Origin: a virus | Lineage: Duplodnaviria; Heunggongvirae; Uroviricota; Caudoviricetes | Strand: one strand, 5' to 3' | Length of the DNA: 5,326 nucleotides | IMG/VR virus record: IMGVR_UViG_2713896785_000005 | In this document: piece by piece, positions 1,747 through 5,216 of the stretch | How the letters are laid out: every line of letters starts with the position of its first letter | Position numbering within the stretch: position 1 is the stretch's first letter | Position numbers and translations under genes: made by a program | Notes under the pieces: model-generated | Database searches by the model: none | What the model saw: only the letters and a program-made list of their open reading frames with translations | What the model was told of the DNA's origin: nothing

Positions 1747-1909
1747 ATTAACAGAGACCGCAGCCCGACAGGGAGACTCCTCTGCGAGAGTGTGCGGGGA
1801 TAATCAAAAACGATACACACCGGGGTTTACCGCGTAAACGGAGCGCGGCGTTCTCCCCTCATGGTCGCCCGTCCGGTGCGATGGTGGAAGAAACTGGAAT
1901 CTGTTCAAT

Positions 1910-1939
1910 AAAAAAACTGCCGTGTTGGAGTCACAGCAG
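1910..1939 (-). terminator. Rho-independent terminator for minus-strand transcription (3' of the reverse small gene)
   Basis: Hairpin 1917-1924 (CTGCCGTG) with 1932-1939 (CACAGCAG), 8 bp with one mismatch, 7-nt loop. On the minus strand it is followed by a U-run (plus-strand A7 at 1910-1916). About 135 nt downstream of the minus-strand stop at 2072-2074. Confidence 0.55.
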
Positions 1940-2071
1940 TAATGTACTGATTGGGTAGAAGATTATTATTGTTATGCTTTATTTTTATTCTATATGGCTG
2001 ATTATTTCAATTCGGAATTAATACAGCTAATGTCTGTGATTTTTTATAAATTCAGCAATATAAAGAAATAG

Positions 2072-2299
2072 TTATATGAACAGCCATCGCAGAGCATACT
2101 GTGTATCATTCTTTTTTATAGTCAACTGACGGGCATATTTTATGTCTGCTGCCAGCTCCCGGCGGCAAGATTCAATGACCCACGCAGAAAAATTTTCTGA
2201 ACCTTTCTGGTCAAGAGCGATGTTAATTTGTTCAATCATCTGGTTTGGAAATCGGATGTTGCGGGTTGTTGTTCTGCGGGGCCGGTTTTTCGATGACAT
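2072..2299 (-). CDS. Small ribbon-helix-helix-like DNA-binding protein (75 aa); probably DUF3950/YlcI-type prophage protein
   Basis: Minus-strand ATG (plus 2297-2299) with GAGGAAAG Shine-Dalgarno about 6 nt upstream on the minus strand. MSSKNRPRRTTTRNIRFPNQMIEQINIALDQKGSENFSAWVIESCRRELAADIKYARQLTIKKNDTQYALRWLFI has a basic N-terminus, a short beta-strand-like RNIRFP and two helices (RHH-like). The NFS motif matches what I recall of the DUF3950 family; not verified. Sits in an AT-rich stretch with its own terminator. Confidence 0.6.
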   Translation of the reverse strand: MSSKNRPRRTTTRNIRFPNQMIEQINIALDQKGSENFSAWVIESCRRELAADIKYARQLTIKKNDTQYALRWLFI

Positions 2300-2340
2300 T
2301 TTCTTTCCTCTGGTGACAAGCTATATGGCGAGGATTTTAC

Positions 2341-2706
2341 ATGGCTGTGCTTCGTACGTTACCGGGCAGAATCAAAACTCTGAATACCCGGCGGGTGAAT
2401 GTCCTGAAGGGTGAACAGCGTCGGGTCAGTGGCAGTGCCCGGGTTTCCCTCAAGCGTCGTATCTGGCTGAGGGATGCCGGGCAGTGCTGTCTCTGTGGTC
2501 GTGTGGTTGACCTCTGTGACAGTGAACTCGATCACCGAATTGCACTTCAGTTCGGTGGTGGTAATGAGGAGACGAATCTCTGGACGCTCTGTACCGAATG
2601 CCATCGACAAAAGTCTGCTCGTGAAGCGGCGGGTGGTATGCCGGACCCGACGCTGCCGGAGGTGTCCGGAGGTAGTGGCAGAGCGGACGACATCATCGGA
2701 CTGTAA
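2341..2706 (+). CDS. HNH endonuclease (phage terminase-associated HNH)
   Basis: ATG 2341 with AGGA 2331-2334. The translation contains CCLCG-x-VVDLCDSELDHRIALQFGGGNEETNLWTLCTECHRQKS: paired Cys (zinc-finger-like), the His in DH, an Asn (NL) and CH, i.e. an HNH motif. Position directly upstream of the cos-like region and terminase matches HK97-type packaging modules. Stop TAA 2704-2706. N-terminal extent uncertain. Confidence 0.85.
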   Translation: MAVLRTLPGRIKTLNTRRVNVLKGEQRRVSGSARVSLKRRIWLRDAGQCCLCGRVVDLCDSELDHRIALQFGGGNEETNLWTLCTECHRQKSAREAAGGMPDPTLPEVSGGSGRADDIIGL

Positions 2707-2994: not shown

Positions 2995-3558
2995 GTGCTG
3001 ACAACGCAAAAACGAAAATTTGCGCTGGCGCTCATGTCCGGGAAAAACAAAACAGCGTCAGCCATTGCCGCTGGTTATTCGGCGAAGACCGCCAGGGTTA
3101 AAGGCTCGCAGCTGGCAAAAGATCCGGAGGTGCTTGCGTTTATAGCCCGTAAACAATGCGAGACGGTGGAGGTGGATGAGGTTCCTGTTTACCGGCAGAA
3201 AAAATCAGAGCAGGAGGATAAACCCCGTCGCCGTGAGGCGGCTGCAATACCACAGCCGGACGAAAACAATCCGGAGATGCCACCGTCCGCGGTGATGTCT
3301 CCTGGTATTGAATATATGGAGGATGGTCTTCCCGATCCGGTGAAAGCGATGGGGCGTCTTCTGGTGGAGAACATTAATACCGACCCCAGGCTGGCGCTGG
3401 ATGCGGCTTATAAGCTGGCGCAGTTCACGCACCATAAAAAAGGGGATGCCGGTAAAAAATCGGCAAAAGGTGACGCGGCGAAAAAAGCGGCTAACCGTTT
3501 TGCGGTGCCACCACCACCCCGCCTGGTGGTGAATAATGATAATGAGGGCAACGGATGA
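2995..3558 (+). CDS. Terminase small subunit (TerS), HTH-containing
   Basis: GTG 2995 preceded by GGGAGGAGG (2984-2992). N-terminus LTTQKRKFALALMSGKNKTASAIAAGYSAKTARVKGSQLAKDPEVLAFI fits the small-terminase N-terminal HTH pattern (AGYS-x-KTA). Stop TGA 3556-3558 overlaps the TerL ATG (ATGA). Lys/Ala-rich low-complexity C-terminal tail. Confidence 0.8.
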   Translation: MLTTQKRKFALALMSGKNKTASAIAAGYSAKTARVKGSQLAKDPEVLAFIARKQCETVEVDEVPVYRQKKSEQEDKPRRREAAAIPQPDENNPEMPPSAVMSPGIEYMEDGLPDPVKAMGRLLVENINTDPRLALDAAYKLAQFTHHKKGDAGKKSAKGDAAKKAANRFAVPPPPRLVVNNDNEGNG

Positions 3559-5216
3559 TACCTGTGTGGAGCACGGCCTGCCCGGACTGGGCAGAGCGCC
3601 TGAAAAAGGGGCTGTCGATTATTCCGGCTCCGATTTATCCGGACCAGGCTGCACATGCACTGGCGATTTTTAAACAACTGCGAATTGTGGATGCACCGGG
3701 TAGCCCGACATTCGGGGAGTCCTGTGCACCGTGGGTGTTTGACCTGGTGGCGGCCCTGTTTGGCTCCTACGATGCGCAGACCGGTGTTCGCCATATCAAG
3801 GAAGTGTTTATCCTTATCCCCAAGAAAAACAGTAAGTCCACGCTGGCTGCGGGGATCATGATGACGGCGCTGTTACTGAACTGGCGGCAGGCGGCGGGCT
3901 ACACCATTCTGGCCCCGACCGTGGAGGTGGCGGCTAACGCCTTCAACCCTGCCAGGGATATGGTACGACGGGACGATGATCTGGATGACCTCTGTCAGGT
4001 GCAGACACATATCCGGACCATCACCCATCGGGTGACGGACACCACCCTGAAGGTGGTGGCAGCCGATCCGAATACGGTGTCCGGTATCAAGTCCGTGGGG
4101 ACACTGATTGATGAACTGTGGCTGTTTGGCAAGCAGTACAAGGCGGAAGACATGCTACGTGAAGCCATCGGCGGGCTTGCCTCCCGTCCGGAAGGGTTTG
4201 TGGTGTATACGACCACCCAGTCGAATGAACCGCCCGCCGGGGTGTTCAGACAGAAACTGCAGTATGCCCGGGATGTCCGTGACGGCAAAATTCATGATCC
4301 GCACTTTCTGCCGGTGATTTTTGAGCATCCTCCTGAAATGGTGGAAAGCGGGGCTCACCTGCTGATGGAAAACCTCGCCATGGTTAACCCGAATCTCGGT
4401 TATTCGGTGGATGAGGCTTTTCTGTACCGGGAGTACCGTAAAGCCCGGGAGGCTGGTGAGGAAGCATTTCGTGGCTTCATGTCAAAACATGCCAATGTGG
4501 AAATTGGTCTTGCCCTGCGTTCTGACCGCTGGGCGGGTGCGGATTTCTGGGAGCAGCAGGGCAGGCGCGTCAGCCTGGACGATATCCTGCAGCGCGCTGA
4601 TGTGGTGACGGTGGGGATTGACGGCGGGGGCCTGGATGATCTGCTGGGAATGTACGTGATTGGCCGTGACAGGGAAACCCGCGAATGGCTGGGCTGGGGC
4701 CATGCCTGGGCGCATGAAACCGCGGTGGTCAGACGGAAGAGTGAGGCATCCCGTTTTCAGGATTTTGTGGCCTGTGGAGACATGACGATTGTCCGTCGGG
4801 TCGGGGATGACACGGCGGAAGTGGCGGAGTATGTGCGTCGTATTCATGAGGCTGAGTTACTGGAGCATATCGGTATTGACCCGTCAGGTGTGGGGCAGAT
4901 TCTGGATTCACTGGCGGAAGCCGGGATCCCCGACGGAATTGTTGTGGGGATAAGCCAGGGCTGGAAGCTGGGCGGGGCCATAAAAACCACCGAGCGCAAA
5001 CTGGCTGAGGGAGTACTGGTGCATGGTGGTCAGCCACTGATGGCCTGGTGCGTTGGCAATGCCCGGGTGGAGCCTAAAGGTAACGCCATTCTTATCACCA
5101 AACAGGCCAGCGGACGGGGAAAAATTGACCCGCTGATGGCGCTCTTCAATGCGGTGTCCCTGATGTCCCTGAATCCGGAACCGAAAAAGAAAGCGTATGA
5201 GGTTTTTTTCATATAA
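3555..5216 (+). CDS. Terminase large subunit (TerL), ATPase plus nuclease domains
   Basis: 553-aa ORF. N-terminal region has a Walker-A-like PKKNSKST motif; C-terminal region has VVTVGIDGGGLDDLLGMYVIGRD typical of the terminase nuclease domain. Start overlaps the TerS stop. Stop TAA 5214-5216. Confidence 0.92.
   Translation: MIPVWSTACPDWAERLKKGLSIIPAPIYPDQAAHALAIFKQLRIVDAPGSPTFGESCAPWVFDLVAALFGSYDAQTGVRHIKEVFILIPKKNSKSTLAAGIMMTALLLNWRQAAGYTILAPTVEVAANAFNPARDMVRRDDDLDDLCQVQTHIRTITHRVTDTTLKVVAADPNTVSGIKSVGTLIDELWLFGKQYKAEDMLREAIGGLASRPEGFVVYTTTQSNEPPAGVFRQKLQYARDVRDGKIHDPHFLPVIFEHPPEMVESGAHLLMENLAMVNPNLGYSVDEAFLYREYRKAREAGEEAFRGFMSKHANVEIGLALRSDRWAGADFWEQQGRRVSLDDILQRADVVTVGIDGGGLDDLLGMYVIGRDRETREWLGWGHAWAHETAVVRRKSEASRFQDFVACGDMTIVRRVGDDTAEVAEYVRRIHEAELLEHIGIDPSGVGQILDSLAEAGIPDGIVVGISQGWKLGGAIKTTERKLAEGVLVHGGQPLMAWCVGNARVEPKGNAILITKQASGRGKIDPLMALFNAVSLMSLNPEPKKKAYEVFFI

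Follow-up and report, generated by a model that had tools for sequence, protein, structure and literature searches.

HnrS (formerly EcOnc10/11/12) is a 66-nt Hfq-associated small RNA (sRNA), identical copies of which lie within the late genes of the Sakai prophages Sp9, Sp10 and Sp12 (Poudyal et al., PLoS Pathog 2026, PMC13502914). It is present in multiple copies in the late regions of enterohaemorrhagic and enteropathogenic Escherichia coli (EHEC/EPEC) prophages, and its primary 5′ end and intrinsic terminator have been mapped by differential RNA sequencing (dRNA-seq) and Term-seq, respectively. HnrS has 15 nt of complementarity to the end of mazF and pairs at the ribosome-binding site (RBS) of hha, given as AGAAG within the pairing region in the legend to Fig 3 (PMC13502914). 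The YlcI/YnfO proteins (family DUF3950) are known from the K-12 prophages DLP12 (YlcI) and Qin (YnfO); the literature on them holds list entries only, with no function described. Here, a 5,326-nt stretch of Caudoviricetes DNA (IMG/VR record IMGVR_UViG_2713896785_000005; the whole stretch is called the window below) is found to carry a YlcI-type gene and hnrS one after the other on the minus strand, between the lysis and packaging modules of the late operon of a Shiga toxin (Stx)-type lambdoid prophage. An original prediction, made from the letters alone, had described a possibly orphan ribbon-helix-helix (RHH)-like gene with its own terminator at this place. The evidence favours a different picture as the likely one: a two-gene, moron-like cassette composed of a DUF3950 RHH regulator and hnrS.

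The sRNA gene lies in a stretch previously noted for being rich in A and T. That observation is borne out by a G+C content, per 100 nt, of 0.32 (1900-1999), 0.24 (1950-2049), 0.29 (2000-2099) and 0.34 (2050-2149), against 0.45-0.65 on both flanks. As a description, however, it was incomplete, for the stretch carries a separate, already published sRNA gene at about 1975-1910. From the predicted start at A1975 to the last U at 1910 the transcript would measure exactly 66 nt, the same length as HnrS. Both of the described pairing sites can be found in it. K-12 hha reads GGUAGAAG from -11 to -4, a segment that contains the AGAAG RBS and is exactly complementary to the seed, and plus-strand positions 1944-1958, GTACTGATTGGGTAG, are K-12 mazF positions 322-336 of 336. 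The mazF-identical block also makes a small plus-strand open reading frame (ORF), 1881-1958, end in ...NVLIG, as MazF does, which is explained as the HnrS-mazF pairing site. A 111-nt block comprising the promoter-like site and the sRNA (1905-2015) occurs at 99% identity or more in 544 of 5,426 complete E. coli genomes, in one to five copies per genome, the strains listed being O157:H7, O111 and O145. On these properties, the minus strand from about 1975 to 1910 is almost certainly HnrS. The gene lacks an annotation at all listed matches in the 544 RefSeq genomes, and a search of the window against Rfam 15 (E ≤ 1) gave no relevant match and none for hnrS; genome scans will therefore keep assigning its terminator to the neighbouring protein gene.

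The same assignment had been made for this locus, and it holds in part: a minus-strand terminator is present at 1940-1910, but it is not primarily the protein gene's own. The hairpin is part of the fold of 2075-1895, a 181-nt segment that as a whole gives z = -2.8. Between 1600 and 3000, two terminator-like sites are found against 1.6 by chance in shuffled sequence, a pattern that is not significant alone; the hairpin gains weight because it matches an sRNA mapped by Term-seq (PMC13502914). Judged by this match, it is the terminator of HnrS. A pattern scan of 2072-1940 gave no other minus-strand terminator-like site, and therefore the protein mRNA probably ends at 1940-1910 too. This last point would also suit a single transcription unit, in which the hairpin is the protein gene's own and the AT-rich DNA is a non-functional 3′ untranslated region or spacer. 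Such a unit is highly improbable, as the final 66 nt leading into the U-run have a promoter-like site at the right distance and match two published targets of HnrS exactly, the 111-nt block is conserved across hundreds of genomes, and a primary 5′ end of HnrS has already been reported from dRNA-seq (PMC13502914). The orphan unit of the original prediction is thus corrected to a cassette of two genes, the second being hnrS with a promoter-like site at 2010-1981.

The first gene of the cassette is a genuine protein gene. The 75-aa minus-strand frame and its good Shine-Dalgarno sequence (GAGG, 7 nt before the ATG) had been recognised correctly, as had its DUF3950/YlcI type, proposed from the NFS motif. 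An identical ORF is named in RefSeq as a 'YlcI/YnfO family protein' (WP_000095736.1), and phages are annotated likewise. In hidden Markov model (HMM) searches the protein scores 62.6 bits against Pfam PF13132 (DUF3950; cut-off 25, E = 3.1e-17), with residues 21-50 aligned to profile positions 1-30 of 30, and 39.2 bits against NCBIfam NF041551 (YlcI_YnfO_N; cut-off 30); it matches phrog_949 at E = 2e-32. The NFS motif is N36-F37-S38, of which F37 is invariant across distant homologues and the other two residues nearly so.

Selection on this frame was measured over codons 1-50, for which related loci supplied 31 distinct DNA variants. Read on the minus strand, all 31 are open, and the ratio of nonsynonymous to synonymous polymorphism (pN/pS) is 0.15; third codon positions vary in 46 of the 50 codons, and nearly all of the variation lies there. 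Four other frames give pN/pS of 1.0-2.9. A plus-strand ORF at 2142-2414 had been put forward as something that might refute the prediction. Its frame gives 0.37, a lowish value that is due to the third codon positions it shares with the real gene. That ORF is rejected as the real gene: stops interrupt it in 13 of 31 variants, and it has no match to a family in Pfam, NCBIfam or phrogs. These data also bear on the idea that the locus encodes no protein on the minus strand and is instead a 150-bp DNA or RNA element, such as a recombination linker joining modules or an RNA antisense to the late transcript, or that its gene is the plus-strand ORF. The homology between phages is indeed a 150-bp block between unrelated DNA, as 'linker' sequences at module joints look, and in K-12 ylcI and ybcW form a convergent excludon, seen in at least 50% of MG1655 RNA-seq samples (PMC12288877). 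The idea is extremely improbable in view of the pN/pS of the minus-strand frame and its third-position variation, the interrupted plus-strand frame, and homologues at 30-50% identity that retain the same residue pattern. The excludon implies that the ylcI copy of a resident prophage is transcribed without induction.

Codon 50 marks a sharp boundary within the gene. Among prophage copies the core up to this residue is nearly invariant, and beyond it both sequences and lengths are unrelated. DNA similarity to K-12 ylcI and ynfO starts at the ATG and stops near codon 50, and therefore the gene spans a mosaic joint. Other phages have unrelated DNA after codon 50. Phages with another packaging module have a diverged copy of hnrS behind the same 'AADIK' tail, which indicates that hnrS and the YlcI tail move together as a cassette.

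The conserved core probably adopts an RHH fold, although no single score is statistically significant. The AlphaFold2 (AF2) monomer model, built with 27 homologues, has a mean predicted local distance difference test (pLDDT) score of 78, with residues 1-18 extended and helices at 19-32 and 37-73. In a Foldseek comparison with the PDB, the top 50 matches are mostly RHH or RHH-like proteins, including StnY/CopG, Arc, NikR, MazE9, TacA, KacA, AtaR and NikA, with a best E of only 0.57. The best PDB match by sequence is a CopG-family RHH protein (E = 0.23); profile comparison with CopG was uninformative. Alignment of the core profile to P22 Arc with hhalign (E = 0.002, probability 13%) has the correct register, placing N14 on Arc N11, R16 on R13 and P18 on P15. 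The first two of these Arc residues contact bases from the strand, as established by structural work. R16 is invariant across all homologues; N14 is not, being G in many satellite copies. The earlier idea of an RHH-like protein is in this way supported by the model and the fold searches taken together.

Relatives of the core outside lambdoid prophages point in the same direction. DUF3950 is a narrow family: an exhaustive HMM search over 1.84 billion representative proteins gave 184 matches. Distant homologues were found at HMM E-values of 1e-5 to 1e-10, and the divergent ones in viral contigs are almost always in satellites resembling phage-inducible chromosomal islands (PICIs). There, primase and DUF4222 lie on one strand and the DUF3950 gene alone on the other, followed by alpA and int; it is the sole gene opposing the primase operon and stands at the divergent control region. 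In the Gram-negative PICI scheme, this position is the 'dynamic/Bro' zone (PMC10111431). Upstream of the satellite DUF3950 genes (L137-L171, in the roughly 200 nt before position 5001 of each) are three GTGT-N4-6-ACAC palindromes, at about -110, -85 and -32, the last of which abuts a -10-like TATGGT or TATAGT. The motif ACGTCAA (TTGACGT on the other strand, -35-like) occurs after the middle palindrome. No description of such a repressor/operator layout with DUF3950 was found in the literature searched. The palindrome centres are not the same in all elements and tend to go with the residues that immediately precede the IRF strand: YKGIRF pairs with GTGTTTAAACAC in six loci and KKN/YIRF with TGTGCGCACA in four. 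Such tracking is what an RHH autorepressor that reads DNA by its β-ribbon would give. One satellite has a second DUF3950 copy with two perfect TGGTACGTACCA palindromes flanking TATAAT, as well as the fusion P0236 discussed below. A CGTACG palindrome in the window (2353-2358) resembles this sequence and was dismissed as chance, being a 6-mer within the HNH coding sequence that is not conserved elsewhere. By homology, the satellite relatives support a role for DUF3950 as a DNA-binding regulator.

In the proposed model, two chains of the YlcI-type protein would pair their RNIRF strands into a β-ribbon that enters the major groove of DNA, with N14 and R16 aligned to Arc N11 and R13, and the basic arm KNRPRRTTT would add further DNA contacts. 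Such a protein would regulate as a small DNA-binding dimer, probably repressing its own gene; it would be produced independently of the late operon and presumably be expressed in the lysogen. Downstream by 97 nt on the same strand, hnrS would yield its 66-nt Hfq-dependent sRNA from its own promoter-like site, and the shared terminator would end HnrS and probably the protein mRNA as well. The identity of the gene, selection on its minus-strand frame, the sequence properties of HnrS and the genomic contexts are results of the analysis, from which the RHH dimer, its DNA binding and regulatory role, the common termination and expression in this lysogen are inferred.

Several points weigh against this model. 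A monomer structure model cannot show a β-ribbon, since the strand forms only in the dimer. Operators of the phage-type protein were looked for and not found: the contexts have no repeated 7-mer in common, and GTGT-N-ACAC sites are absent from the window. With sequence likeness to the lambda-type copies also ending exactly at the ATG, a conserved autoregulatory site is not evident. In the satellites, the link between palindrome centres and protein residues is imperfect (for example in L170), and common descent is a confounder. The protein gene must have its promoter within the HNH gene or further away; a possible -10 hexamer was not picked up in a consensus promoter scan. Finally, the HnrS sequence is not printed in the text of the paper, and therefore its identity with the present gene rests on described properties rather than on direct alignment. 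The features on which the model is built are collected in Table 1.

Table 1. Features of the cassette and of its surroundings in the window
Feature	Position	Strand	Details
YlcI/YnfO (DUF3950) protein gene, 75 aa, ATG start	2072..2299	minus	ORF list, family profiles, RefSeq/phage annotation
Conserved core, codons 1-50	2150..2299	minus	putative ribbon-helix-helix DNA-binding module
Parts of the core			basic N-terminal arm, residues 1-12; predicted β-strand RNIRF, 13-17; helix A, 19-32; NFS N-cap, 36-38; helix B, 37-50
Variable C-terminal tail, residues 51-75	2072..2149	minus	start of AT-rich DNA; past the breakpoint at about codon 50
Shine-Dalgarno GAGG	2307..2310	minus	7 nt 5′ of the ATG, read from sequence
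Possible -10 hexamer TAAAAT of the protein gene	2334..2339	minus	putative; overlaps HNH start region; no good -35
AT-rich stretch	1940-2130		24-34% G+C; holds protein tail, 97-nt spacer (with hnrS promoter-like site) and hnrS
Promoter-like site for hnrS	1981..2010	minus	TTGAAA 2010-2005, 18-nt spacer, AAAAAT 1986-1981 (consensus scan)
sRNA gene hnrS, 66 nt	1910..1975	minus	ends predicted from sequence
HnrS seed CUUCUACC	1954..1961	minus	exact complement of K-12 hha -11..-4
mazF-complementary 15 nt	1944..1958	minus	exact complement of the mazF coding end, stop codon included
Intrinsic terminator	1910..1940	minus	9-bp stem (5 G-C pairs) 1940-1916, 7-nt loop, U7 1916-1910
Lysozyme gene	to 462	plus	window gene order
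Small membrane ORFs, then Rz-like gene	after lysozyme gene, before 1407	plus	
HNH endonuclease gene	2341-2706	plus	
TerS gene	2995-3558	plus	
TerL gene	3555-5216	plus	

The position of the core gene is constant across the prophages that carry it. In about 125 E. coli-type prophage loci it always lies between Rz and the packaging genes, always antisense to the latter, and is always the last gene before the packaging module. Three types of module are found beside it: HNH/TerS/TerL, 41 bp from the gene; lambda Nu1, separated from it by 388 bp that include cos; and a Nu1-like, 43%-identical type. Phage lambda itself (L204, J02459) contains an unannotated ORF of the family, complement 48112-48303, about 200 bp to the left of cos; it encodes 64 aa and is the same protein as K-12 YlcI. 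The lambda 'orf-64' was considered as this gene and rejected, as it is a different gene located between Q and S. Lambda p79 corresponds to YbcW, and p78 to the DUF1398 protein YbcV. In lambda-type loci (L003, L004, L072, L126), two palindromes are kept between cos and ylcI in four otherwise different contexts: ATGATAATAATTATCAT, at about -164 from the ATG and beside cosQ, and TTGATCTGCATCAA, at about -74.

Part of the apparent spread of the family has another source. Contigs close to 3.5 kb or 48.5 kb in size that have the lambda/DLP12 order ylcI-ybcW-ybcV-bor-Rz (L012-L051) appear in species-representative genomes of unrelated phyla, including Streptomyces, Cohnella, Pedobacter, Brevibacillus and others. 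Their size and gene order indicate that they are most likely lambda DNA used as a sequencing control. Many of the odd-tailed 'YlcI' proteins in databases look like error-laden or contaminant copies of this control DNA, and such copies were left out as evidence of diversity.

A constant place next to the packaging genes raises the possibility that the protein is a packaging- or satellite-related DNA binder, which would act at or near cos, in terminase specificity or in helper-satellite conflict and not as a transcription factor of the usual kind. Its position as the last gene before three types of module and the lambda copy close to cos would both fit this. In satellites, moreover, the DUF3950 core is found fused to a TerS-type helix-turn-helix (HTH) in P0236 and P0200 (Pfam PF13132 + PF03592), and the TerS DNA-binding domain of P0236 matches PDB 2cmp at E = 1.6e-4. 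Fusions of the core to a Terminase_2-type HTH, 120-129 aa in length, were observed at L132 5590-6363 (E. coli CP027459) and L136 4714-5103; the L132 satellite adjoins a truncated prophage terS, an arrangement like that of a helper-embedded PICI. A precedent is the PICI protein Rpp, in which a TerS-like DNA-binding domain is joined to a dimerisation domain and which hijacks the TerS of its helper (PMC6739421). The fusions of L132 and L136 could, speculatively, be an Rpp-like device aimed at an HK97-type TerS. Weighed against this, the gene in prophages is antisense to the late operon and so is not co-expressed with terminase, the DNA upstream is not conserved with the gene, and orphan chromosomal homologues exist without phage context. 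Lambda packaging requires no more than terminase, integration host factor (IHF) and cos, and the Rz-cos interval can be lost. It may be that the fixed position reflects nothing more than a moron insertion zone in that interval. A packaging- or satellite-related role of this kind is overall unlikely.

The GTTAAC repeats downstream of the HNH gene bear on the same question. Between HNH and TerS, at 2796-2925, there are five GTTAAC/ATGTTAAC sites, each extended to TGTTAAC or GTTAACA, which include a perfect 18-bp palindrome, CAGTTAACATGTTAACTG, at 2797-2814 and inverted 12-mers at 2892-2903 and 2913-2924. A minus-strand promoter-like site (2902-2873) lies inside the array. These repeats had been suggested as operators of the RHH protein, a proposal that finds no comparative support: the array recurs in another locus of the HNH/TerS type and is absent from four lambda-type contexts with a nearly identical core. 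It travels with the HNH/TerS packaging module and not with the gene, which also counts against a packaging role for the protein. Sites for binding of terminase are therefore more plausible, and the array is probably a set of cosB-like sites for the terminase small subunit.

A related proposal is that the YlcI-type protein of helper-type lambdoid phages is the phage-side counterpart of the DUF3950 proteins in the repressor slot of PICI-like satellites and acts in helper-satellite conflict. It could then bind at the operators of satellites or build mixed RHH dimers with their regulator. We regard this as quite improbable. If true, it would explain why a nearly invariant 50-aa core is kept by selection beside cos across at least three unrelated packaging modules, the unannotated lambda copy being one instance.

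RHH proteins are also common as antitoxins, and the gene could be the remnant of a type II pair that has lost its toxin, for instance the DUF1398 gene found after ynfO in Qin. A DUF1398 gene (ydfO/ybcV) follows the core gene in lambda-, DLP12- and Qin-type contexts but not in the window. It lies 57-140 bp away, or behind the opposite-strand ybcW in DLP12 and lambda, and in most of the non-lambda contexts surveyed the core occurs without it, making DUF1398 a frequent but dispensable neighbour. We know of no toxin function described for DUF1398, and neither this gene nor the locus in the window has a PADLOC match. The earlier statement that no partner toxin lies beside the gene is confirmed by the window ORFs and PADLOC: no co-oriented ORF of at least 20 aa with a family match follows, and hnrS is found there instead. 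In RHH antitoxins, it is the C-terminal region that binds the toxin. Here, this region is the hypervariable part, differing completely among prophage copies. Antitoxin models score far below cut-off (BrnA, 12.7 bits against 60; a HicB-like phrog, E = 0.041). Lastly, homologues in Rouxiella and Tatumella (50-57% identity) are lone chromosomal genes. The antitoxin option fails on its defining features, namely an adjacent toxin, a conserved C-terminus and an antitoxin model above cut-off, and is very unlikely.

The wider locus belongs to Stx phages. The 1.2 kb around it are 99.9% identical to the Stx2a-converting phage Stx2_EH1846 and to prophages of Shiga toxin-producing E. coli (STEC), and 98% identical to phage BP-4795. 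After Rz lies a plus-strand ORF (1407-1631) for a Cys-rich protein of 74 aa, which matches phrog_2571 (function unknown), has no Pfam match and is found in some related phages only. The window contains runs of N at 1271-1342 and 1675-1724, the second of which has the same 22-mer, GGTATTGTCGCCGTATTCCTGC, on both sides and resembles a scaffolding or assembly-gap artefact. Scattered ambiguous bases are present within the lysozyme gene (291-336).

Both parts of the cassette are already known separately: hundreds of STEC genomes have the protein gene annotated, and the sRNA has been in print since 2025-26. The physical linkage of hnrS and the YlcI-type gene suggests possible co-transcription or co-regulation. 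DUF3950 has members in many E. coli lambdoid prophages, in lambda itself and at the control regions of many PICI-like satellites. Should it prove to be an RHH repressor, a gap would be filled in both lambda biology and satellite regulation. The most interesting lead lies outside the window, in the link of DUF3950 to satellite control regions and TerS-HTH fusions.

Compared with the systems described so far, the locus resembles each in part. K-12 YlcI (DLP12) and YnfO (Qin) share the 50-aa core at about 85% identity, including NFS, as well as the site between the lysis genes and the packaging gene and the antisense orientation. They differ in C-terminal tail, 5′ leader and neighbours: the K-12 copies have a Nu1-type terminase on the far side of cos, and DUF1398, ybcW or bor comes after them, whereas the window copy adjoins the HNH gene and is followed by hnrS. 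With P22 Arc and Mnt and RHH proteins of the CopG/TacA type, the protein has in common its size, a basic N-terminal arm and two predicted helices. The likeness to Arc extends to the predicted strand of alternating N and R (N-I-R-F-P here, N-L-R-W-P in Arc) and to the N-cap motif of helix B (NFS here, GRS-VNS in Arc). Unlike these repressors and antitoxins, the YlcI-type protein has no significant sequence or profile score and no identified operator, and its gene lies outside the immunity region without a paired toxin. PICI-like (AlpA/primase) satellites, including helper-embedded PICIs (PMC10111431), carry a homologous core as the only gene against the main operon; their copies, however, are located with int-alpA on one side and the replication genes on the other, have three GTGT-N-ACAC palindromes at the promoter, and in some cases are fused to a TerS-type HTH. 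The closest correspondence is with HnrS, which agrees in its length of 66 nt, promoter-like site of its own, intrinsic terminator, complementarity to mazF and hha, and multiple copies, and for which comparison by described properties gave no difference (PMC13502914). The text of that paper makes no mention of an upstream YlcI-family gene, the neighbour with which hnrS likely forms a cassette in the window.

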